Part shown: positions 17,301 to 27,761 of the stretch, piece after piece
Layout of the letters: each line of letters begins with the position of its first letter
Position numbering within the stretch: the stretch's first letter is position 1
NCBI GenBank assembly: GCA_040758375.1
Contig: JBFLWE010000020.1
Coordinates: forward strand, 1,202 to 65,201
DNA from: Pseudomonadota bacterium
GTDB lineage: Bacteria > Pseudomonadota > Gammaproteobacteria > Burkholderiales > Burkholderiaceae_C
Length of the DNA: 64,000 nt
Direction: 5' to 3'
Translations under genes and position numbers: made by a program
Notes under the pieces: generated by a model
Databases searched by the model: none
What the model was told of the DNA's origin: nothing
What the model saw: the letters and a program-made list of their open reading frames with translations, nothing else

Positions 17301-17896
17301 AAGAGCTGCCGCTCGCCCGCGTGGAGAACCAGGGCTACATCCACTACCGCAAGGGCACGCTGGCGATGTACTGGCTGCGCGAGGCGCTGGGCGAAGACAC
17401 GGTGAACCGTGCGATGAAGAAGCTGCTGGCGCAATACGCTTTCAAACCCGCGCCTTATCCCAACACGCGCGACTTCATCGCCTTGCTGCGCGCCGAGGCC
17501 GGCACCCAGCACGACCCGCTCATCACCGACCTGCTGGAGAAGATCACGCTGCTGGACGTGAAGGTGAGCGATGCCACGGCCACCAGGCGTACCGATGGCA
17601 AGTACGAGGTGACGCTGAAGGTCGAGGCGCGCAAGCTCTATGCCGATGGGCAGGGCAAGGAAACGGAAGCCCCGCTCGACGAGCCGTTCGAAGTGGGCGT
17701 GTTCAGCGCAGAGCCGGGCAGCGCCGGGTTCAAGGCCGACGCGGTGCTGCGCTTCGAGCGCCAGCGGGTGAAGACCGGTGCGCAGACCCTCACGCTGGTG
17801 GTCGACCGCGAGCCGCGCTTCGCGGGCGTGGACCCGTACAACAAGCGCATCGACCGCAACGGTGACGACAACCTGAAGCCGGTGACGCTTAAATAA
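14309..17896 (+). CDS. ABC-2 type permease fused to an M1 family (gluzincin) aminopeptidase domain
   Basis: 1195 aa. The N-terminal two-thirds has many hydrophobic helices. The C-terminal part has HEIAHQWWGH (HExxH) and a downstream Glu (LVESFAQY), as in M1 peptidases. Confidence 0.8.
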   Translation: MLRHVAAFEWRYQIKSPVFWVGCLMFFLLAFGSVTVDQIQIGSKGNVHVNSPFAIVQTLAIMSLFAVFVVVALVANVVIRDDETGFAPILRSTSVGKVSYLVGRFAGALAAALLVLASVPLAILVGSWMPWLDPEKLGAFRLGHYLYALFAFGLPTLLIVSATFFALATATRSMMWTYVGAVALLMLYFVMRGMLREPQYDGIAALVDPFGLSALSTTTKYWTAAERNTLLPPLAGPLLANRLIWAGAGLAMFALAYRLFRFEQPASRKARPAAAADDTPPPAPATAAGSALAAPRADAATRRAQLWRLARFDMAFVFRSPAFFVLLGIGVLNSTGSLWMAGELYGSGSYPVTRLMVQALQGAFTLMPIIIAIFYAGELVWRDRERRMHEIVDATAAPDWSHLAPKILAIALVLTASALVGAATGIAVQALKGYTRFDLAAYALWFVLPTTVAALQLAVLSVFVQVLVPQKFIGWGVMLLYIVSSIALATAGFEHNLYNYGNTPPVPLSDMNRMGRFWVGASWFLAYWSAFALVLAVLAHALWRRGANVALKPRLKQLRHRLRGGTLVLLCTGVAAWLGLGAWIFYNTNVLNTYLPAPEREALLAQLEKELLPFESLPQPKITAVTLDVQLYPREARAVTSGRYELENRSGQPIDRLHVSWFSEWTSLDSLQLPGATLHKDYPQYHYRIYRLQPALQPGEKRTLQFATTVQQRGFGNGPPLQRVVDNGSFLDNTEFAPGIGMSRQPLLTDRAKRRKHGLPPDLRPPKLEDDSARAFNEFRRDSDWVSADISVTTDADQTPIAPGYTVSDTVSNGRRTVRFKPDAPLSYFFSIQSGRYAVQRDKWNEVDLAVYYHPEHAYNVGRMMEAMKLSLQMFSERFSPYQFRQARILEFPAYADFAQSFANTIPYSENLGFLFRHTDPEKVDMVTYVTAHEIAHQWWGHQLVPSAQQGASMLVESFAQYSALLVMEKMYGREQVRRFTKYELDRYLRSRGGEVVEELPLARVENQGYIHYRKGTLAMYWLREALGEDTVNRAMKKLLAQYAFKPAPYPNTRDFIALLRAEAGTQHDPLITDLLEKITLLDVKVSDATATRRTDGKYEVTLKVEARKLYADGQGKETEAPLDEPFEVGVFSAEPGSAGFKADAVLRFERQRVKTGAQTLTLVVDREPRFAGVDPYNKRIDRNGDDNLKPVTLK

Positions 17897-17897
17897 T

Positions 17898-17915
17898 GCG
17901 GGGCGGGCTCCCCGC
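17898..17915 (+). terminator. GC hairpin just after the permease/M1 stop codon
   Basis: GCGGGG-cgggct-CCCCGC, a 6-bp stem. There is no clear T-tract, so termination activity is uncertain. Confidence 0.3.
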
Positions 17916-17922
17916 CTGCGCA

Positions 17923-17936
17923 TACAGAAATCTGTA
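17923..17936. promoter_or_regulatory. palindrome TACAG-N4-CTGTA upstream of vapB (candidate antitoxin operator)
   Basis: Perfect 5-bp inverted repeat 14 nt upstream of the vapB ATG, in a locally AT-richer stretch. Type II antitoxins usually autoregulate through such palindromes. Confidence 0.25.
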
Positions 17937-17949
17937 CACTTCAAGCATC

Positions 17950-18192
17950 ATGAAGACAACGCTTGATCTGAGCGATGCTCTGCTCTCCGAAGCCAAGGCG
18001 CTCGCCGCCCGCCAGCACACGACGCTGACACGCGTGATCGAAGAGGGGCTGCGGCTGCGCCTACAAGCCCAGAAAGCCGCATCCAAGGGCCGCCGCCGCA
18101 CACTGCCAGTCTTCAAGGGCCGCGGCGGGCTCGTGCCCGGAGTTGACCCGCTCAGCAACAAATCAATGTTGCAGGCAGCCGGCGACGAATGA
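17950..18192 (+). CDS. vapB: type II antitoxin (VapB-like)
   Basis: 80 aa from the ATG at 17950 (MKTTLDLSDALLSEAKALAARQHTTLTRVIEEGLR). ATGA overlap with the downstream PIN gene. Confidence 0.7.
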   Translation: MKTTLDLSDALLSEAKALAARQHTTLTRVIEEGLRLRLQAQKAASKGRRRTLPVFKGRGGLVPGVDPLSNKSMLQAAGDE

Positions 18193-18623
18193 CGCCAGAT
18201 GTCAATGTGCTGGTCGCCGCGTCGCGTGACGACCATCCGCACCACGCGGTGGCACGCGAGTGGCTCGAAACGGCGGTGGATGAGGCCTCCGCCGGTGGCG
18301 GGTTGATCTTGTTGCCGATGGTCGTGGCGAGCTTTCTGCGGCTCGCCACGAACACGAAGGTCTTCGTCTCTCCGACACCGACGGAAGACGCGGTCGCGTT
18401 CATCGACGCACTGCTGGCGATGCCCGGCGTGCGCATGCCCGAGGTCGGCGGCGAGTGGCCGCGACTGCGCGCGCTGTGTTTGAGCAAGAAGCTTCGCGCG
18501 AACAGCCTGCCGGACGCCTGGATTGCCGCAGCGACCCAGCAGCTTGGCGAGCATCTGGTCACCTTTGACGCTGACTTCCGCAAGCTCCTCAAGAGAGCCG
18601 AGTTCACGCTGCTCGCCGTATAG
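18189..18623 (+). CDS. vapC: PIN-domain toxin (VapC family ribonuclease)
   Basis: 144 aa. N-terminal acidic residue in MTPDVNVLV and a C-terminal LVTFDADF motif typical of PIN domains. Translationally coupled to vapB. Confidence 0.75.
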   Translation: MTPDVNVLVAASRDDHPHHAVAREWLETAVDEASAGGGLILLPMVVASFLRLATNTKVFVSPTPTEDAVAFIDALLAMPGVRMPEVGGEWPRLRALCLSKKLRANSLPDAWIAAATQQLGEHLVTFDADFRKLLKRAEFTLLAV

Positions 18624-18718: not shown

Positions 18719-19962
18719 GTGGCCTCCCTCTTCCGCCGCGAGGCAATCGACCACCAGCGCGATCGCTTTCACGGGGCGATCGTGCTGGCGAGCACATGGT
18801 CGTCCACGGCGCTGACGCTGTTCCTCTGCGCAGCCGTGGCCTCGGTGATTCTGTTCGCAGGCCTCTTCGGCTTCGCGCGCAAAGAGGCGGTCAGCGGCGT
18901 GCTGGCCCCCGACCGGGGCTTGCTGCGGCTTTCGGCCCCGCAAGCCGGCGTGGTGGCCGACATTCACGTGAGCGACGGCCAGGCGGTACATGCGGGCGAT
19001 CCGCTGTTCACCATCTCCAGCGCGCAAACCAGCGCCACCGGCGCCACCCAGAGCACGATCAACGAAACGCTGGCCGAACGCATGACGCAGCTGCAGGCAG
19101 ACCTGCAGCGCCAGAGCATCTCGCCGCCAACTGGCGCGCCGCGCTGAACGCCCAGTCCGCCAGCCTGCGCGCGGCCTTGCAGCAGCAGGATGCCGATCTG
19201 CAGGTGCAGCAGGAGCGCCTGCAGATGCTGCGCGACATCGCCCAACGGTTCGCTGACCTGCTCAAGACCGGCACGGTAACCGAGGTCGCGGCCAAGGAAA
19301 AGTGGGCTGCGGTGATCGAGCAGCAATCGCGCATTGCCACGCAGCAACACGCCCGGCTGCAGCTGCAGCAACAGGCGCTCGACATCCAGGCGAGCTTGGC
19401 CGACCTGCCACTGCAGACGGCCCGTGAAACCTCCCGTCTGAGCCGTGAACTCGCAGAATTGCAGCAGCAACGCGCAGAAAACGAATCCCGCCGACGGCTG
19501 GTGGTCCGCGCCGAGCAAAGCGGAACGGTCGTCACCCTCATGGCCCAGTCTGGACAAGCCGTGGCCAGCGGCCAGCCCTTGGCAGAACTGCTGCCCTCCC
19601 GCAGCCGGCTGGAGGCCGAACTGCTCGCACCCACCCGCGCCATCGGCCTCGTGCGCCCAGGCACCGAGGTGTTGCTGCGCTACGACGCCTTCCCTTATGA
19701 GCGCTTCGGCCAGTTCAAAGGTCGGGTCCGCGACATCTCCCCCACCGCCGTGCCCTCCGGCGCCCTGCTCGAAACCACCCGCTCACCAACGCCGCTGTAC
19801 CGCATTCGCGTGCAGCTCGAATCCCAGGACGTCATCGCCCAGGGCACACGCCATCGCCTGCGGCCCGGCATGCAAGTCAGCGCCAGCCTGGTGCTGGAGC
19901 GGCGCTCCCTTGTCGAGTGGGTACTGGAGCCGCTGCTGGGCTTGACGGGAGGCCCGGGATGA
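18719..19962 (+). pseudogene. HlyD/CvaA-family bacteriocin-secretion adaptor, frameshifted
   Basis: The N-terminal 142 codons (LFRREAIDHQRDRFHG, one TM, GVVADIHVSDGQAVHAGDPLF) stop at 19145-19147. The rest (coiled coil, SGTVVTLMAQSGQAVASGQPLAELLP, C-terminus) continues in the frame of ORF 18523..19962. The frames switch near 19108-19125, consistent with a 1-nt deletion. Confidence 0.75.
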
Positions 19963-21030
19963 GCCTGTTCCAGGGCCTGCAGCTGGGCCTGGGCCAGCGG
20001 TTGCCGGTGTTGTTGCAGACCGAAGCCACCGAATGCGGCCTCGCCTCGGTGGCGATGATCGCCATCTACCACGGCTACCGCACCGACCTGCCCACGCTGC
20101 GGTTGCGCTTTGCGATCTCGCGCAAGGGCGCCACCTTCGAAAGCCTGATCCGCATTGCCCGCGCACTCAAGCTCGAAAGCCGTCCGCTGAAGCTGGACGT
20201 CGAGAGCCTGCACCACCTGCAGCTTCCGTGCGTGCTGCACTGGGTTCGGGCTCGAACGGGTGCTCATCGTCTGGCTGGCGGCCCACGCCGTGCTGGACAA
20301 GAGCTTCACCGCCGGCATGCTGTTCGCGTTCGTGGCGTACCGGGAGCAGTTTTCCACCCGCATTGCGGGCCTGATCGACAAGGCCACCGAGCTGGCCATG
20401 CTGCGGCTGCATGGCGAGCGCGTGGCCGACATCGTGATGCACGAGCGCGAGGCCGAGACGCCGCATGAACACGATGAGGTGGATCTGCAGCGCGTGCCGC
20501 CGTCGATCGAGCTGCGCGACGTGTCGTTCCGCTACCCGCCCACCGAGCCTTTTGTCTTCGAAAACGTCAGCCTGAAAATCGCCGCCGGCGAATGCGTGGC
20601 GATCACCGACGCTTCGGGTGGCGGCAAGACCACCTTGGTCAAGGTGATGCTGGGCCTGCTGAAGCCCTCACAGGGCGAGATCCTGGTCGGCGGCACCCCG
20701 GTGCAGCGCCTCGGGCTGACCACCTACCGCCAGATGATCGGCACGGTGATGCAAAGTGACCGGCTGTTCAGCGGCTCGCTGGCCGACAACACCTGCTTCT
20801 TCGACCCGATGCCCGACATGGAGCGCATTGAAGCCTGCGCCCGGCTGGCCTCGATCGACAAAGAGATCCTGGACATGCTCAACGAGCGCAACGTGAATGA
20901 TGCGGTAAAGGCCATGCAGCTCACCCGCGTGCTCGTGGCGCACCGGCCCGAAACGATCGCCATGGCCGACCGGGTGTTGGTGATGGAGCGGGGGCGCCTG
21001 GTGCCGCAGGCGGCGGGTGCCATGTCTTGA
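19959..21030 (+). pseudogene. C39-peptidase-domain ABC exporter (CvaB/ComA-like) remnant with two internal deletions
   Basis: The ATG at 19959 overlaps the adaptor stop. The C39 domain is intact through QTEATECGLASVAMI...LPCVLHW. Near 20241 the reading frame jumps to the last TM helix (GFGLERVLIVWLAAHAV). The NBD has ITDASGGGKTT (first Walker A Gly replaced by Asp), a Q-loop and an H-loop (VLVAHRPETI), but no LSGGQ signature and no Walker B (junction near 20871-20885). The total is about 357 codons, where I recall about 700 for the family. Confidence 0.75.
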
Positions 21031-21067: not shown

Positions 21068-21107
21068 TGTCTGTGACACCTGATTGGCAGTTGACAGGAG
21101 GAATGCT

Positions 21108-21305
21108 GTGAATTCAGAAGACAAGCAAGTCCCGCCCTCGGCGCCCGCGCAGCCGGAGCGGCTGAGCGAGGAGCAGTGGCGTCAGGTGGCCGGTGGGCCG
21201 ATGCCGAGCCCAGGAACAGCCCGCGGTGCCCGCACTGCTGAGCGCCTCAGCGAAGAGCAACTGCGCCAAGTGGCCGGCGGGCCAGTGGTATCCCCAATAC
21301 TGTAG
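21108..21305 (+). CDS. double-glycine-leader peptide precursor with two tandem leader-core units
   Basis: AGGAGG (21096-21101) lies 6 nt before the in-frame GTG at 21108. Product: VNSEDKQVPPSAPAQPERLSEEQWRQVAGG-PMPSPGTARGARTA-ERLSEEQLRQVAGG-PVVSPIL. Both LSEEQxRQVAGG units fit the LSxxELxxIxGG leader consensus. The two 45-nt copies (21156-21200, 21240-21284) differ at 10 nt in 9 of 15 codons. Eight of those codons change only at a synonymous third position, and the ninth is the W/L codon (tgg/ctg). Confidence 0.6.
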   Translation: MNSEDKQVPPSAPAQPERLSEEQWRQVAGGPMPSPGTARGARTAERLSEEQLRQVAGGPVVSPIL

Positions 21306-21372: not shown

Positions 21373-23688
21373 CTATTCAGTGGGCAATAGGTAACGCGTT
21401 GCCGGGCCCTTGCCCACCTGCACCAGCAGGCCCCGCTCGGCCAGCAGCCCAAGGTGCTTGGACGCAGTGGCCAGGCCCACCGAGCACAACTCGGCATAGA
21501 TGCTCTTGCTGATCGGCTCGCCGCGCACCAGACGGTCGAGCAAGGCGGCACGGCGTTCGTCCGGCAGCAGGTCGGATGTCGCTTGCCGCCAGTGCGCCGT
21601 CACGCGCTGCTCGCGCGTGAGTTCGCGGTTGAAGACCGCCCGCAGTCCGTCGAACTCGTCCGCGAAGGCATCGCCTAGTTGGTGCTTGTGAATGAGCGCA
21701 AGTGCCGCCTCGCGCTCCTTGGTCGAGATCGTCAGGTAGGACCGCGCAATCGCGATATGCGCCTTCACGTGCACCTGCGGCTCCAAGGGCAACGCCAACA
21801 CCGCGCGTTGCCGCTGCACCTCGGCCATCTCGTGGAAGTGCACCGCAAACTCCTGTGGCAGCAGGCGATCGTAGGAGTCGTTATCGCGCGGTCCAAGGAT
21901 CTCTCGCTTAAGTCCGCGAGTTGCCTCGATCGCCCCCGCGTCCGCGTCCTGCGGCCAGAGGGCAAGAGCGGCTGCAGCATGGGCATCGCCCCGCTGCTCG
22001 TCCTCGGGCCGCTCCAGCGCCTGGAAGCGCTTGTAGTAGGCCTCTGCAAGGTTGTAATGCGCGCGTCCCATCAGTAGCCGCAGCTTGGCCGCGGCACTGC
22101 GTTCGAGTGCGGAACGGTAGTGCTCGATCGCCTGGTCGTATCGGCCTTGCCAGAAGTAGGTGGCACCCAGGTTCATGTGGGTAGCCGCTAGGGTTTCGGG
22201 CTCGATCGCGACCTGGCCCTCCAGCGCCAGCACGCGCTGCGAGTATTCAATCGCGCGGGCAAAGTCCTTTGCGTCCCCGTACAGCAGACTTAGGTTGCTG
22301 TAGGTCTTGAGCACCGACTGCTGGTCGCCCATACGCTCGTAGAGATTGAGCGCGCGGTGCTTGTGCTCCAGCGCCGCGCGCAAGTCCCCCGCGCGCCGCC
22401 AGTACTCGCCCCAGGCCTGCTCCAGCAACGCCTGAACCTCTGAAGGCAGCGCGCGCATCGCACGCAAGTCTTCCGCCTGATCGAGTACCGGCTTTGCGCG
22501 CGGGTCATTGCGGAGCACGTAGATCCAGGCCAGCTTCACCAGCGTGTTCACGTATTCCGCCAGCAGCGGCGCATCCGCCTCGGCAGGGTTGTCCTGCAGA
22601 CCCGCCCGCCGCAGAAACTCGGCGCTGTCTTGGTAGCAGGAGAACGCGCGGTCCGGGTCGCGCGGCTCATGGAACTTGCCCAGAGCGCCGTACACGATGC
22701 CCAGGCGCAACGGATCATCGCCAGCAAGTCGTAGCGTCCGTTCATACGCCTGCTGTTCCCGGTCGTCGTCGCCGCGCACATGCCACAGCGCTGCCACCGC
22801 CAGCGCAAGCCGAAACTGCTGCATCTGCACCATCGGCTGGCCCTGCAACGCTTCCAGCAGGGTGTCCGTGGCAACGTCGTTCGCCAGTTCGATGCGTCGT
22901 CGTTCAAGCGTAGCCAGGATCTGGTCGATGTCTCCCGCGGCCAGCAGGTGCCAAACTGCTGCGGCTGGTTCGCGCGCCAAGAGGGCGCGCGTGGCCTGCA
23001 ATCGGTGCCACTCGGCGCGCTGCTCTGGCTGCTCCAGGCCAAGACGCTCGTACACCGACTGCTGCACGAGGCGCCACAGCCCGAGCTGGCCACGCCCGTC
23101 CGACGGCGGCTGCAGCAGCACCTCAGCCATCAGCCGTTTGCCCTTGTCGAGGTAACGGTAGAAGGTGCTAGGCCCTACTGACCACAACCCGCACAGGTGA
23201 TCGGACGCCGATTCGTCGGCCCGCGCCCTGTAGCGGTCGCGGAAATCGGGCACCGCAGCAAAGCCATACTGGCACATCACGGCCAGCATCGGACGCCAGC
23301 TGGTGCGCTCGATCCAGCACTCGCGCGGAATGTCCTGCAGGCTGGCCTGCCCATCCGGTCTCAGCCGGGTCACGGCCCACCGAAGCAGCAGTTCCCAAGG
23401 CGCGGCCACGCCGGTCCGATCGAGCGCGTCACCTGCAGCCAGCCTAATGGGCCGCAAGAGTTGCTGCTCGAACCTGCGCGTCAGGCGCGGCCGACGGCGC
23501 AGCAATTCGGCCAGCGTGCCCGCCTTGTATGCGTTGAGTGCCGCGCCAAGCACCGCTTCGACGACCGCCGGCGCAAGCGCGTGTCCACACGCTAGCTTGG
23601 TTTCACCCTGCGACTTAGGGGGTGTGGTGACGTCGCTCTTCAACCATCGTCTCCCGATCGTCTGCGGCGTGGTCCACAGGGGACGCAA
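21373..23688 (-). CDS. large TPR-repeat regulator with C-terminal winged-HTH
   Basis: 771-aa ORF. The central region has repeated TPR-like units (e.g. GDAKDFARAIEYSQRVLAL, WQGRYDQAIEHYRSALE, AHYNLAEAYYKRFQAL). C-terminus: SIYAELCSVGLATASKHLGLLAERGLLVQVGKGPATRYLL (ArsR/MarR-like wHTH). There is an N-terminal HTH-like stretch GPSTFYRYLDKGKRL. The start is uncertain: TTG at 23688, or TTG at 23643 preceded by GGAGA. Confidence 0.65.
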   Translation of the reverse strand: MRPLWTTPQTIGRRWLKSDVTTPPKSQGETKLACGHALAPAVVEAVLGAALNAYKAGTLAELLRRRPRLTRRFEQQLLRPIRLAAGDALDRTGVAAPWELLLRWAVTRLRPDGQASLQDIPRECWIERTSWRPMLAVMCQYGFAAVPDFRDRYRARADESASDHLCGLWSVGPSTFYRYLDKGKRLMAEVLLQPPSDGRGQLGLWRLVQQSVYERLGLEQPEQRAEWHRLQATRALLAREPAAAVWHLLAAGDIDQILATLERRRIELANDVATDTLLEALQGQPMVQMQQFRLALAVAALWHVRGDDDREQQAYERTLRLAGDDPLRLGIVYGALGKFHEPRDPDRAFSCYQDSAEFLRRAGLQDNPAEADAPLLAEYVNTLVKLAWIYVLRNDPRAKPVLDQAEDLRAMRALPSEVQALLEQAWGEYWRRAGDLRAALEHKHRALNLYERMGDQQSVLKTYSNLSLLYGDAKDFARAIEYSQRVLALEGQVAIEPETLAATHMNLGATYFWQGRYDQAIEHYRSALERSAAAKLRLLMGRAHYNLAEAYYKRFQALERPEDEQRGDAHAAAALALWPQDADAGAIEATRGLKREILGPRDNDSYDRLLPQEFAVHFHEMAEVQRQRAVLALPLEPQVHVKAHIAIARSYLTISTKEREAALALIHKHQLGDAFADEFDGLRAVFNRELTREQRVTAHWRQATSDLLPDERRAALLDRLVRGEPISKSIYAELCSVGLATASKHLGLLAERGLLVQVGKGPATRYLLPTE

Positions 23689-23804
23689 ATGGCGCCTATG
23701 AATGCGACACCGAAAAGCTTAGTGTATGAGGCGTCGTCGGCGCACTCCCCGTCGAGGCACGCCGCCGTAACACTCATTTGCATCGTCCTACTAAGGAGAC
23801 CTCC

Positions 23805-25358
23805 GTGCCGTTCCCCACCATCCTTCCCAGTGATACGCGTACCGCGCCGACAGACGCCGTGACACTGGCGGTGTACGCACCCTTCGGCACCGACGAGGTG
23901 CTCAGCTCCTATCCTGACGGCAGCTCGCGCGAGCTTGCGCAGCATCCGCTGTTCAAGAGCCTGCTGCAGGTCTGCGAGTGTGGCGTCCACGTGAGTGCGT
24001 TGATCGACCTGGCCGGTGACGACACCTACCTGGTTGACCTTCCCGCCGGCCAACCCGCGGCGGTGAAGGTCATCTCGCGCTGGAAGCAGGACATGTCAGC
24101 CCCAGCCACGCTGGCCGGCTTCCTGCGCCACGCGCAGGCGACTTGGCCCTCGTCCGCGCTCGTGCTGGCGCTCGAAGGCCACGGTGCTGGCTTCCTCCCT
24201 GATATCGACCGCCGCCAGCTGAGCACGCAAAACGTCACCGCGGGCGGCACGATCGAATGGCGTATGTCCGGAGACCATGCCTCCCCCGTGCTGCCGATGG
24301 GCTCGCCGCTCCTGCCCATGGGCTCGCCGTTGTTGCCAATGGGCTCACCGCTGCTGCCAGCGAACCACATGCCGATATCCACTGCCGGCCTGGGCATTGC
24401 CTTGAAGGACGCCATCGCCCACGGAGCGCCGAAGATCGCGGCACTTCACTTCAACAACTGCTTCAACATGTCGGTCGAGGTGCTGCACACGGTGGCCCCG
24501 TATGCCGAGTACGCCACCGGCTACATGAACTACAACTTCTTCACCGCGGGAGCAACCTATCCCGCGGTGTTCGCCCGCCTGCAGCGAGCGGGCAGCGCGA
24601 GTGCCGAACAACTGGCCTGCTGGTTCGCCGACGAGAACCGCGCCGCGCTGGCACAGAAGAAGCACCACCCCACCGTCGGGGGGGTGATCCGCCTGTCCCG
24701 CATGCACGAGATCGCCGAACGCATCGACGACCTGGCTGACGCCTTGCTGTCCGCACTGCGCACGGCCTCTGCGGGCGCGCGGCCTGCCGTCGTCAGCAAG
24801 GTCCGCCACGCCATCCTGAAGGCACAGCAGTACGACACCGACGCACCGATGGAGCTGGAATCCCCGGATCAGCTTACCGACGTCTACAGCCTGGCCGCCG
24901 CATTGACGCAGTTCGACTTCGGCCCGCACAAGGTGCATTCGGCTGCACTGGCGCTGCAGAAGGCACTGCAAGGCGTCAAGGCCTATGGCGAGAACGACCA
25001 CCCCTGGGTCGCCTTCGACCAGCGCTGGAACTTCAGCGCGCCCACATTGGCAATGAACATCTTCCTGCCCGATCCTCTGCTGAGCGGGCTGTGGGACTGG
25101 CGCTCGCCCTATTACCTGAATGTGAACCCCGACCCGACGCTACCCCAGGTGCAACCCCGCATCATTGAATTCCTGAAGGTTACTGACTGGGTGGACTTCA
25201 TCATCGAGTACCACAAGGAAGCCCGCTTCATCGGGCTTCTGCCAGCCGCCATACCCGCGTTCCCGGTGTTCAACGCCGGCTTCGAACCACCCCGCAAGTC
25301 AGACGACCCCTGCCACGACGGAGGTTCCAAGGAGGGAGGCAAGGGCACCGCCCGCTGA
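23805..25358 (+). CDS. clostripain-like cysteine peptidase (family C11, clan CD)
   Basis: AAGGAG (23793-23798) lies 6 nt before the in-frame GTG at 23805. Putative catalytic dyad: His in LVLALEGHGAGF and Cys in IAALHFNNCFNM. This matches the C11 His-Gly ... Ala/Asn-Cys pattern as I recall it, with no HMM run. No signal peptide. Confidence 0.55.
   Translation: MPFPTILPSDTRTAPTDAVTLAVYAPFGTDEVLSSYPDGSSRELAQHPLFKSLLQVCECGVHVSALIDLAGDDTYLVDLPAGQPAAVKVISRWKQDMSAPATLAGFLRHAQATWPSSALVLALEGHGAGFLPDIDRRQLSTQNVTAGGTIEWRMSGDHASPVLPMGSPLLPMGSPLLPMGSPLLPANHMPISTAGLGIALKDAIAHGAPKIAALHFNNCFNMSVEVLHTVAPYAEYATGYMNYNFFTAGATYPAVFARLQRAGSASAEQLACWFADENRAALAQKKHHPTVGGVIRLSRMHEIAERIDDLADALLSALRTASAGARPAVVSKVRHAILKAQQYDTDAPMELESPDQLTDVYSLAAALTQFDFGPHKVHSAALALQKALQGVKAYGENDHPWVAFDQRWNFSAPTLAMNIFLPDPLLSGLWDWRSPYYLNVNPDPTLPQVQPRIIEFLKVTDWVDFIIEYHKEARFIGLLPAAIPAFPVFNAGFEPPRKSDDPCHDGGSKEGGKGTAR
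24294..24356 (+). repeat. 3 x 21-bp in-frame tandem repeat encoding PMGSPLL x3 inside the C11 protease
   Basis: ccgatgggctcgccgctcctg / cccatgggctcgccgttgttg / ccaatgggctcaccgctgctg. Every difference between copies is synonymous. The repeat lies between the putative catalytic His and Cys. Confidence 0.9.
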
Positions 25359-25568
25359 AAAGCCCGACTGGCCCGGCGACGCCCTTCCCACGCAACCCCT
25401 GCTGCGGCCGCAAGGCCCGGCAGGGGTTGTTCTTTATCGTCTCGCCATCGTCCTCCGGCACCGCCCGCACCGCCTTGCATCGCGCGTGGAGATGGGAACG
25501 CGCCAGCGCTGCAATGGCCTCCGACACGCCGCTTTCGGCTGCCACCCACACCACGGAGGACATTTCCC

Positions 25569-27761
25569 ATGGCCATCACGATGCAAGGCGCCTGGACCAT
25601 CCGGGTCAGCGCCAAGAACGCTTCCTTCGCACAGCGCTTCGTCGTCACCGGCGCCGACAGCGGCAACGGCACCTACACCGGCACGGTGGGCACCAGCGTG
25701 TTCGTCTCGGGCGCGCAGTGGTCGCTGAACATCCAGCACCAGCCCACGGGGCAGCCCTGGCGCGACTCGGCCCAGCGCATCGGCTTTCCCGGCGTGGCCG
25801 GCGGCCTGCTGCGCTTCGAGATCCGCTCCAACGACGCCGGCGCCGACACCGACTACGACGACCTGGTGCTCAGCTGCTCGCTGCCCGCCAGTGCGTCCGA
25901 CTACGTGCTGTACGGCACGGTGAAAACCTACGCCGGCCTGTGCCTGTTCAACCCCTGCCGCGACGACTACGTGGTGCTCGACCCGCCGTACCACCTGCAG
26001 CGGCTGTGCGAGCGCTTCCCGCAGCTGTGCGACGTGCTCGCCAAGCTGTACCCCGAGCGCCTGCGCGTCCCGCCCATCCCGCTGCCCGATCCGCCGCCGG
26101 AGCTCACGCCCATCGTCATCCCCACCGGGCTGCCGGTGGTGTCCAACGGGCTGGTGTTCCAGTCGCGCATGGCGCGCGCGCCGCAAGCCGGCGCCAAGCT
26201 CGCCGACGACCAGCGCGAGGCCGAGGCCGTGGCGGCGCTGGGGCTGAACGTGCGGCGCACCGCCTTCCGCTCCAGCGCCATGGCCGCCGGCCTGGACAAG
26301 CTCTCGCGCCTGGACCTGGAGGCCATTGCCGGCATCCGCGACATCGGCATCCGCTTCCGCTGCAACGTCGAGCGCGCGCCCGGGCTGCTGCTGCGCTTCC
26401 AGGAATACGACCGCACCGCCGCCGAGAAGCTCGGCGGCCCCTACAGCGGCGCCGGCGCGCGGCAAGACCTGGGGCTGGCGGTCACCGACGAGCTGGGCAA
26501 CTACATCTTCCGCTTCAGCCCCTCGCTGGCCGACATCGCCGAAGAGACCGCCGACGTGGCCGCGGGCGAGAGCCTGGCCGCGCAGCTGCGCCCCGACGTG
26601 ATCGTGCAGGTGGTGGGCACGGGGCTGACCGCCACCTACGAGACCGCGCCCTACAACAACGTGGCCAACCTGCAGCGCATCGACCTGTGCGTGCCCTACG
26701 ACAAGGCCCACCCCAGCCGCGCCTGCGCAGGCGACCGCGTGATCCAGCGCGTGGGCGACATCGTGCTGCTGCACTCGGCCATCGACGGCACGCCCAACCA
26801 GCTCGATGCCGAAGGCCGCATCACCTGCCGCAACGCCAACGCGCCGCAGGTCGATTGCGCCGGCTGGCGCGGTGCGCTGCGCCTGTATGCCTGCTTCGGC
26901 CGGCCGGAGGCGGTGCGCTATGCCGTCTTCCACAAGCGCCCCAGCGAGACGACGTGGCACGCGGTCAACGAACCGCATGCGCTGAACTGGATCCCCAACC
27001 TCGTGGCCGGCGGCACCTCGGTGGGGCCGAGCGACCAGATGGTCACGCCCAGCGTGCCGCTGGCCGGCGGCCCGGGCCAGCCGGTGCCCACCTATGCCAA
27101 CCATGAAGGCGACCTCAACTGGATCGAAAACGACCTCAAGCTGATCCTGCACACGGCCCTGTACCGCCCCTGGGACGAGCCGGGGCCCGTGCAGTTCCAC
27201 ATCGAGGCCTACGACAGCGCCGGCAACGCGATCGCGGCCACGGCCGACACGGTCACGCTGTACATCCACAACCGCACCGCCATCGCCGGCCGGCCGCAGA
27301 AGGGCGACATCGAGTCCATCACGATGGGCAGCACCACGCTGGGCGACTGCGGCCTGTTCGTGCTGAGCGCGCCCGATGCGCCGCTCACCGTGAAGCACCG
27401 CGCGGTCGACCCCGAAGGCTTCCTGCACAGCTGGTCCTTGAGCGTCACGCGCGGCAACCACCATCCGGTGTCAACCGTGGTGGTCGGCGGCGTCACGCCC
27501 AAGGCCTTCAACGCCGCCGCCACGCCCTGCGACTTCACCGGCACGCGCGACGAGCCCACGGCCGACGTGAACGACTACGTGCTCACCGAGCTGAAGCCCA
27601 ACCCCCTGAGCGCCGACGGCCCCCACTGGCTGCCGGCGGGCCACAACTTCTGCGCCTTCGCCTTCACCCTGAGCGCCAGCGACCGCGTCACCGACGGCCG
27701 CACGGCCTATCCGCAGGTCGTGTTCTGGCAAGACCTCATCGGGTTGAGCACCGGTGCCTGA
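25569..27761 (+). CDS. hypothetical protein, 730 aa, no family recognised
   Basis: GGAGGA (25555-25560) lies 8 nt before the ATG. Codon usage is typical of the genome's genes (GC-rich third positions). Composition looks beta-rich. No signal peptide and no TM segment. Confidence 0.6.
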   Translation: MAITMQGAWTIRVSAKNASFAQRFVVTGADSGNGTYTGTVGTSVFVSGAQWSLNIQHQPTGQPWRDSAQRIGFPGVAGGLLRFEIRSNDAGADTDYDDLVLSCSLPASASDYVLYGTVKTYAGLCLFNPCRDDYVVLDPPYHLQRLCERFPQLCDVLAKLYPERLRVPPIPLPDPPPELTPIVIPTGLPVVSNGLVFQSRMARAPQAGAKLADDQREAEAVAALGLNVRRTAFRSSAMAAGLDKLSRLDLEAIAGIRDIGIRFRCNVERAPGLLLRFQEYDRTAAEKLGGPYSGAGARQDLGLAVTDELGNYIFRFSPSLADIAEETADVAAGESLAAQLRPDVIVQVVGTGLTATYETAPYNNVANLQRIDLCVPYDKAHPSRACAGDRVIQRVGDIVLLHSAIDGTPNQLDAEGRITCRNANAPQVDCAGWRGALRLYACFGRPEAVRYAVFHKRPSETTWHAVNEPHALNWIPNLVAGGTSVGPSDQMVTPSVPLAGGPGQPVPTYANHEGDLNWIENDLKLILHTALYRPWDEPGPVQFHIEAYDSAGNAIAATADTVTLYIHNRTAIAGRPQKGDIESITMGSTTLGDCGLFVLSAPDAPLTVKHRAVDPEGFLHSWSLSVTRGNHHPVSTVVVGGVTPKAFNAAATPCDFTGTRDEPTADVNDYVLTELKPNPLSADGPHWLPAGHNFCAFAFTLSASDRVTDGRTAYPQVVFWQDLIGLSTGA

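Follow-up and report, generated by a model that had tools for sequence, protein, structure and literature searches.

A heptad array in the activation loop of a divergent C11 peptidase paired with a TPR/winged-helix regulator: a possible protease-regulator switch

What reads a seven-residue motif that a protease repeats, in identical copies, in the very loop whose cleavage activates its relatives? The question is raised by an open reading frame (ORF) in a stretch of 64,000 nucleotides (nt) from a Pseudomonadota bacterium of the Burkholderiales (assembly GCA_040758375.1, contig JBFLWE010000020.1, positions 1,202 to 65,201 of the forward strand; hereafter the window, in whose own numbering all window coordinates are given). 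A preliminary description, made from these letters alone, had taken the ORF for a cytoplasmic, clostripain-like protease of family C11 (clan CD) with three PMGSPLL repeats between its catalytic His and Cys, paired with a divergent gene for a regulator with tetratricopeptide repeats (TPR) and a winged helix-turn-helix (wHTH). We followed it up with profile and structure comparisons and with a survey of homologous loci. The protease gene and its catalytic codons lie as follows.

23805 to 25358, + strand: gene of a C11 (clostripain-family) cysteine peptidase of 517 amino acids without signal peptide, identified through PF03415, Foldseek and homologues
23793 to 23799, + strand: its ribosome-binding site, AAGGAGA, seen in the sequence; a GGAG-like element is kept there in other loci
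24180 to 24182, + strand: codon of the catalytic His126, in LEGHGAGF, invariant in the alignment and paired with the His of SHGTG in PdC11
24459 to 24461, + strand: codon of the catalytic Cys219, in HFNNCFNM, invariant in the alignment and paired with the FDAC region of PdC11

The ORF starts with GTG at 23805 and stops at 25358. Its product is matched by Pfam PF03415 (Peptidase_C11) well above the gathering score (E = 7.9e-13, 49.1 bits against 25.8), the match being confined to residues 200-439 because the loop insertion after His interrupts the alignment. When an AlphaFold2 (AF2) model built with 30 homologues in the alignment (predicted local distance difference test, pLDDT, 67; predicted template-modelling score, pTM, 0.69) was compared with the PDB by Foldseek, the seven top matches were all C11 (E 1e-8 to 2e-7, probability 1.00), among them clostripain (9cip), two Bacteroides thetaiotaomicron structures (6n9j, 6nag) and the PdC11 zymogen (6mzo); PmC11 (3uws) ranks eighth with E = 4e-3. 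The superposition on the top C11 structures is moderate (template-modelling score 0.33-0.54) and identity to solved C11 structures amounts to only about 14-16%. In sequence searches of the PDB, neither the protease alone nor a profile found a significant match; the only yield was a weak alignment with 6mzo, which was used to place the catalytic motifs. His126, Cys219 and their flanking motifs are invariant among the 30 aligned homologues. The protease is thus a divergent member of C11 (clan CD) with an intact His126/Cys219 dyad, and both the family and the catalytic pair had been read correctly from the letters; the Pfam search and the structure comparison, named at the time as checks, each return a significant C11 match. 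The absence of a signal peptide, also part of that description, holds as well: in the AF2 model the first β-strand of the catalytic domain already spans residues 18-26, with no hydrophobic N-terminal segment ahead of it, which leaves no space for a signal peptide and makes the enzyme, on the strength of this model, probably cytoplasmic. The characterised C11 enzymes known to us are secreted.

In PmC11 the dyad residues His133 and Cys179 are 46 residues apart and activation needs a cut at Lys147 within the His-Cys loop; clostripain excises a nonapeptide from the corresponding loop, and an Asp two positions before the Cys (Asp177 in PmC11, Asp229 in clostripain) forms the S1 pocket for Arg or Lys (PMC4850288). 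In the window protease, His126 and Cys219 are 93 residues apart, so that its loop is about 47 residues longer than that of PmC11. The corresponding spacing in clostripain is about 55 residues. The loop had been called unusually long on a count of about 92 residues; the count was slightly off, and the judgement stands, at about double the usual length. It is within this loop that the repeat is found.

24291 to 24359, + strand: heptad array in the His-Cys (L5-equivalent) loop, LPMGSPL x3.3, equal to PMGSPLL x3 at 24294-24356, from the sequence and Tandem Repeats Finder

The array therefore occupies the loop that is cut for activation in PmC11 and clostripain. Its three perfect PMGSPLL units read CCGATGGGCTCGCCGCTCCTG, CCCATGGGCTCGCCGTTGTTG and CCAATGGGCTCACCGCTGCTG; the 21-nt units differ pairwise at 3, 4 and 4 positions, and every difference is synonymous, exactly as had been described. 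A degenerate SPVLP directly precedes the array (LPxGSPL register, 3.3 copies), and Tandem Repeats Finder delimits it at 24289-24359, with a period of 21, 3.4 copies, 82% matches and a score of 100. Since its pLDDT lies below 50 in the AF2 model, the array probably forms a flexible, exposed loop.

Homologues of the protease number more than 590. An exhaustive search of 1.8 billion cluster representatives places the protein in a tight clade of about 45 full-length clusters (50% identity), beyond which scores fall sharply to generic C11 proteins at 27-31% identity. The family belongs mostly to the Rubrivivax/Piscinibacter/Ideonella/Aquabacterium group of the Burkholderiales, with clear transfers of the module to Chloroflexota (Ca. 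Roseilinea, Anaerolineae, Thermoflexales), and its members bear no database name other than 'clostripain-related cysteine peptidase'. A C11 protein on a contig labelled as a Chitinophaga pinensis metagenome-assembled genome (MAG; locus L009) is 92% identical to that of a Piscinibacter MAG (L008), probably through a binning error and not a transfer. The preliminary description had proposed comparing repeat number among homologues; at least two perfect tandem heptads are found in the His-Cys loop of 129 of 157 family proteins, usually in 2.3, 3.3 or 4.3 copies, and copy number ranges from 2 to about 6 across the family. The heptads come in about 59 distinct sequences, for example LPMGSPL, LPGGSPL, LPAGSPL, LPQGSPI, LPTGGPL, LPGGFPI, LPMGCPT, LPMFSAV, LPMTSPE, LPESWPV and LPTKGGV; position 3 is filled by M, Q, T, G, A, L, S, K or V, and variation is wide at positions 5 and 7 too. 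Outgroup C11 proteins of about 29% identity (P0215, P0219, P0223) carry unrelated heptads in the corresponding loop, namely IPYTPQT x4, LTPQNHP x4 and MTPQDHP x3. In one protein of 659 residues (P0124) the loop has grown to about 230 residues and holds about 14 copies of a 12-residue unit, DPVLPGGSPTSH.

Despite this diversity between proteins, the units within one protein are alike. Three aligned heptads are identical in 67 of 111 genes, and mixed arrays are rare (position 3 reads Q, E, Q, Q in locus L003 and M, K, K in L025). At the same time, units of the same gene differ at 328 of 670 fourfold-degenerate third positions (0.49), and the silent differences within arrays include TCG/AGC switches of serine codons and CTG/TTG leucines. 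Orthologues in which all four units have changed at position 3 (Ala against Thr; L020/L022 and L008/L009) show a gene-wide fourfold difference of only 0.21-0.31. The units of one gene have thus diverged silently further than the genes of different species, yet their peptides change jointly, which only selection for identical units explains consistently. As judged from the family's sequences, purifying selection holds the heptads identical within a protein while the sequence itself shifts between lineages. Simple slippage or gene conversion was rejected as the explanation: homogenisation at the DNA level would also wipe out the synonymous differences. Selection on the peptide repeat had been proposed from the three window units, and the family-wide data bear it out far more strongly than the window alone. 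Some reshuffling between units nevertheless appears to have taken place, since same-index units of close orthologues (L010/L011, L008/L009, L020/L022, L039/L049) show a silent difference of 0.40 against a gene-wide expectation of 0.25, and DNA identity dips locally across the His-Cys loop; between these orthologues, same-index units are as different silently as different-index units. Silent variants seem to have been shuffled among units with the peptide unchanged.

Two elements between His and Cys bear on autoprocessing of the loop.

24207 to 24215, + strand: D135-R136-R137 (in DRRQL), a candidate site of Arg-type autoprocessing where the loop begins; D135 is invariant, R136 is not
24453 to 24455, + strand: Asn217, two positions before the Cys, at the position of the S1 specificity Asp (Asp177 of PmC11, Asp229 of clostripain); F-D-A-C of PdC11 pairs with F-N-N-C

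DRRQL had been pointed out as a possible Arg-type cleavage site. The motif is present, but it is not a conserved site of this kind: R136 occurs in only 91 of 157 family proteins (a motif-based count), the family alignment holds no invariant basic residue in the His-Cys loop, and the S1 Asp has become Asn217. Across the family the S1 position is N in 105 of 157 proteins, D in 46 and another residue in 6; the Asn of the window protease concerns specificity and leaves family membership by profile and fold unaffected. R136 accompanies an S1 Asp in 41 of 46 proteins and an S1 Asn in 49 of 105 (raw counts, which ignore kinship), as though an ancestral Arg-directed site and its pocket had been lost jointly. 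In some family loops the first 60 residues contain neither Lys nor Arg, and any cut there would fall at another residue. Canonical Arg-directed autoprocessing may be ancestral, and some members may have retained it; the loop's conserved role must be a different one.

What is kept is the partner gene.

21373 to 23643, - strand: partner regulator, built of an N-terminal HTH-like motif, a long superhelix of TPRs and a winged HTH at the C terminus, from Pfam, AF2, Foldseek and adjacency

A homologue of this regulator lies divergently adjacent, directly upstream of the C11 gene, in all 118 loci with enough sequence, which confirms the divergent pairing described earlier, and the protease and this divergently transcribed regulator of about 750 amino acids form an obligate two-gene module. 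The pairing extends to a low-GC outgroup locus (L167, 1833-6107), in which a protease with 29% identity to the window protein and the array IPYTPQT x4 faces a divergent TPR/wHTH protein of 809 amino acids, 27% identical to the window regulator (E = 2e-21). The contigs of two arrayless outgroups (P0228 and P0235) are too short for context. The regulator likely starts with TTG at 23643 (756 amino acids); an upstream TTG at 23688 would yield 771, and residues 1-36 of this longer reading, whose numbering is used for the domains below, are unconserved and of low pLDDT. Pfam finds TPR_12/TPR_1 and a weak HTH_20, as well as a sub-threshold AimR-like match (E = 0.015). In the AF2 model (pLDDT 85) the protein is all-alpha at 40-700, followed by the winged HTH at about 710-767, and an N-terminal HTH-like motif spans about residues 161-192, with the strongly conserved sequence LCGLWSVGPSTFYRYL near 161-185. 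The best PDB matches of this model are the TPR domain of LGN/Pins, consensus-TPR superhelices and the TPR domain of OGT, and several of the matched TPR entries are complexes with bound peptide partners. The TPR superhelices of LGN/Pins and OGT hold long extended peptides in their inner channel.

If the regulator reads the heptads, its residues may be expected to change with them. We paired each locus once with its nearest relative, which gave 35 pairs, 25 of them in the divergence range 0.08-0.35; among these 25 independent pairs, heptad position 3 differs in 10 and is unchanged in 15. Analyses of all pairs and of hand-picked pairs were dropped, as they are confounded by phylogeny and overall divergence. 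A change at heptad position 3 is accompanied by change in seven regulator columns (399, 505, 542, 539, 556, 596 and 206; Fisher P <= 0.005), where a divergence-stratified permutation expects 1.5 (P = 0.007); residues 399, 505 and 542 each change in 6 of the 10 differing pairs and in none of the 15 others, and five of the seven columns lie within TPR helices between 505 and 596. In the same pairs, the protease body outside the loop has no co-varying column against 0.8 expected. The co-variation of the regulator with the heptad is suggestive and, being seen in the regulator only, it points to the regulator, more than to the cleft of the protease itself, as the surface that fits the heptad.

The module further carries a candidate DNA target on either side of the protease gene. 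The intergenic alignment reveals ATCGTCT-N4-ATCGTCT, a pair of 7-bp direct repeats with a period of 11 bp.

23646 to 23663, + strand: direct-repeat site 1, ATCGTCT-CCCG-ATCGTCT, candidate operator; an exact match, with 0.01 chance matches expected
25436 to 25453, + strand: direct-repeat site 2, ATCGTCT-CGCC-ATCGTCC, oriented like site 1, with one mismatch

Site 1 immediately precedes the start codon of the regulator gene on its upstream side and stands about 140-160 nt before the start of the protease gene; site 2 follows 78 nt past the protease stop, just after a terminator-like hairpin and about 115-130 nt before the next gene. Allowing at most 2 mismatches, the site is found upstream of the C11 gene in 101 of 140 loci and within 400 nt past the C11 stop in 123 of 143, in constant orientation, against only 18 matches elsewhere in 2.0 Mb on both strands. 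The ATCGTCT sites are probably, to judge by their placement and recurrence, the operator of the regulator, and the position of site 1 just upstream of the likely TTG start suggests autoregulation. The architecture resembles the pho box, the operator type of the PhoB/OmpR winged-helix proteins, in which two 7-bp direct repeats with a 4-bp gap and an 11-bp period are bound by tandem winged-helix domains; the sequence differs, and the putative binder is not a response regulator. In locus L055 the site is extended to four tandem 11-bp units, and the intergenic region of L167 has a direct repeat of its own, CTTTTTGA, present twice. A sigma-70 consensus scan of the intergenic region found no promoter, and a sigma-54 promoter was rejected on inspection by eye, as the motif spacing after both DNA sites does not fit.

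Our preferred reading, tentative and in our estimate somewhat short of an even chance, is that the array serves as a multivalent linear ligand for the TPR channel of the partner and so couples protease latency to transcription. All heptads would be read by one and the same surface, for which the concave channel of the TPR superhelix in the partner is the most likely candidate. With the regulator bound to its loop, the uncleaved protease would stay latent or have its state reported; the regulator's occupancy of the ATCGTCT sites would be tied to the amount or the processing state of the protease, and a cut in the loop, or release, would free both partners. Several points weigh against this. The AF2 model assigns the loop no position. 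The co-variation comes from 10 differing and 15 non-differing pairs and fails a per-column Bonferroni correction, and the clustering of its signal in regulator residues 490-600 was spotted post hoc. Moreover, the 2.3 kb upstream of the outgroup protease P0219, with LTPQNHP x4, contain no TPR gene, so that an array can exist without an adjacent partner, on a contig that is short. A related arrangement, in which heptapeptides excised from the autoprocessed protease would be the free ligand of the TPR/HTH regulator, in a signalling circuit like that of the RRNPP family, we consider improbable; if true, it would amount to a peptide-signalling circuit in Gram-negatives and Chloroflexota, with the heptad variants as lineage 'pherotypes' co-evolving with their receptor. 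Recognition of the heptads by the active site of the protease itself, as repeated autoprocessing or pseudosubstrate sites that would all need to suit its subsites and shift along with its specificity, with the TPR protein merely a transcription factor, is rather unlikely, although it deserves more weight than free heptapeptides. The array sits exactly where C11 enzymes autoprocess, the replacement of the S1 Asp by Asn in 105 of 157 proteins makes a P1 residue other than Arg or Lys conceivable, as do the loops that lack Lys and Arg in their first 60 residues, and one outgroup array has no TPR gene next to it. Yet it is seven columns of the regulator that co-vary with the heptad and none of the protease body (0.8 expected); the variable positions 3, 5 and 7 would demand very frequent shifts in specificity, while the surroundings of His and Cys are nearly invariant; and there are two prolines per seven residues. 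Proline-rich units are poor substrates for most endopeptidases.

The array might also be no ligand at all. A functionless flexible spacer born of replication slippage, its units alike through ordinary concerted evolution (gain and loss of units, gene conversion), would account for copy numbers from 2 to about 6 and for the roughly 14 copies of a 12-mer in one protein, for the predicted disorder of the region, and for arrays reshuffled at the DNA level, as the silent difference of 0.40 between same-index orthologous units, where 0.25 is predicted, indicates. It would not account for a fourfold difference of 49%, near apparent saturation, while most arrays are without amino-acid differences, nor for serine codons switched between TCG and AGC within arrays; a neutral spacer should gain replacements at least as fast as silent changes, and it should not be kept at the corresponding loop position across proteins less than 30% identical. 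We regard such a spacer as doubtful, slightly more so than free heptapeptides. Least probable of all, and in our view very unlikely, is that the array is a bait, or 'tripwire', for a foreign protease, for example of a phage, whose cut in the loop activates the C11 enzyme as an abortive-infection effector. Activation by loop cleavage is known for C11 enzymes, the heptads diversify rapidly between near relatives, and the module has moved between Burkholderiales and Chloroflexota, all of which would suit a defence role; against it, no defence family of PADLOC-DB v2 is matched, the flanks are often housekeeping genes and not defence islands, and a bait leaves the universal TPR/HTH partner without a role and the co-variation unexplained.

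With PmC11 (from Parabacteroides merdae) and clostripain (from Hathewaya histolytica) the window protease shares the Pfam family, the fold, the His-then-Cys motifs and the regulatory His-Cys loop; it differs from them by its heptad array, Asn217 in place of the S1 Asp, the TPR/HTH partner gene and the lack of a signal peptide, and its family has no conserved Arg/Lys cleavage site. The RRNPP systems of Firmicutes and phages (PlcR-PapR, NprR-NprX, Rap-Phr, AimR-AimP) likewise place a TPR and HTH regulator beside a gene with a short, lineage-variable peptide motif, of 5-8 residues there and 7 in the window array, and some Phr precursors carry several peptide copies. Here, in contrast, the host is Gram-negative, the motif lies within a protease loop, and no gene for a small secreted-peptide precursor was found between protease and regulator in the window locus; the regulator, of about 750 amino acids, has a C-terminal wHTH besides its N-terminal HTH-like motif, and its model matches superhelices of the LGN/OGT type, with RRNPP structures not among the top matches. 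We thus do not count it as an RRNPP member. LGN/Pins and OGT, the best structural matches, could offer by analogy a binding mode for the array of 21-30 residues; they are eukaryotic scaffold and enzyme domains without DNA-binding domains, and their sequence relation to the regulator is limited to the TPR motif.

A full-text search of the literature found no account of this subfamily, its heptad repeat or its TPR pairing, and the array in the activation loop, its concerted evolution at the protein level, the constant TPR/HTH partner and the DNA sites on either side are all absent from the literature and profile libraries searched; the control mechanism, too, has a real chance of being new. What is known of C11 peptidases concerns mainly secreted enzymes with Arg/Lys specificity that are activated by a single cut in a loop. 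In the present family that loop has become a constrained repeat array, whose copies must match one another yet may change jointly, in an enzyme tied to a TPR/DNA-binding partner in at least two phyla. It offers a clean natural case of concerted evolution imposed at the level of the protein and not by DNA homogenisation and, if the array is the ligand of the partner, a compact protease-regulator switch of an undescribed kind.

Downstream of the protease gene, the window continues as follows.

25392 to 25438, + strand: after the protease gene, a hairpin resembling an intrinsic terminator, with UUCUUUAU behind it; from folding energy and shuffles
25569 to 27761, + strand: protein of 730 amino acids without known domain, an accessory neighbour, with no Pfam, NCBIfam or PADLOC match
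28506 to 29852, + strand: Cys-rich protein of 448 amino acids without known domain, an accessory neighbour, in 8 of 84 loci

The hairpin folds with -35 kcal/mol (z = -5.5; none of 200 shuffles folds equally well) and has a U tract behind it; a simple terminator scan also marks 25414-25428. The preliminary description had the protease heading an operon of unknown function, which is rejected: the terminator stands before the next gene and the downstream genes vary between loci, so that the core consists of two genes and not of a protease-headed operon. Among 84 loci, homologues of the 730-amino-acid protein occur downstream of the C11 gene in 9, of the DUF1360 protein in 4 and of the 448-amino-acid protein in 8, and the downstream gene families are unrelated between clades (PPi-phosphofructokinase, ArgJ, a histidine kinase, a type I secretion ATP-binding cassette (ABC) protein, the 730- and the 448-amino-acid proteins). 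The 448-amino-acid protein, which in Chloroflexota lies directly 3' of the protease, is 70-84% identical between Burkholderiales and Chloroflexota, and it accompanies the module in Ideonella and several Chloroflexota. Both of these proteins travel with the module in a minority of loci (L001, L003, L014, L017, L024, L028, L066), and the smaller one is a possible cargo or substrate. None of the four non-TPR proteins of the locus has an NCBIfam model, and PADLOC-DB v2 gave no match at E <= 0.01 for any of its five proteins. Each genome bin has one copy of the module, whose neighbours are often housekeeping genes. The part in a conflict system that the preliminary description had thought plausible is weakened by these results, though not refuted.

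At lower coordinates than the regulator gene, the window has further features, all on the + strand. An ORF of 73 amino acids at 21084-21305, with no Pfam match, contains two double-glycine leader-like motifs, ERLSEEQ[WL]RQVAGG, each with a short tail rich in Pro behind it (PMPSPGTARGARTA and PVVSPIL), and resembles a remnant of a bacteriocin precursor or of a precursor of a ribosomally synthesised and post-translationally modified peptide, or else a two-core precursor. It is preceded, at 18719-21030, by a decayed peptide-export locus, in which the reading of an HlyD-family adaptor passes from one frame (18719-19147) to another (about 19150-19962). Fragments of a C39 peptidase (19917-20468) and of an ABC ATPase (20260-21030) are found there in different frames, and the transmembrane part is lacking. 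At lower coordinates still, at 17896-18623, a toxin-antitoxin pair of the VapBC type consists of a small antitoxin-like ORF and, behind it, a PIN-domain protein.

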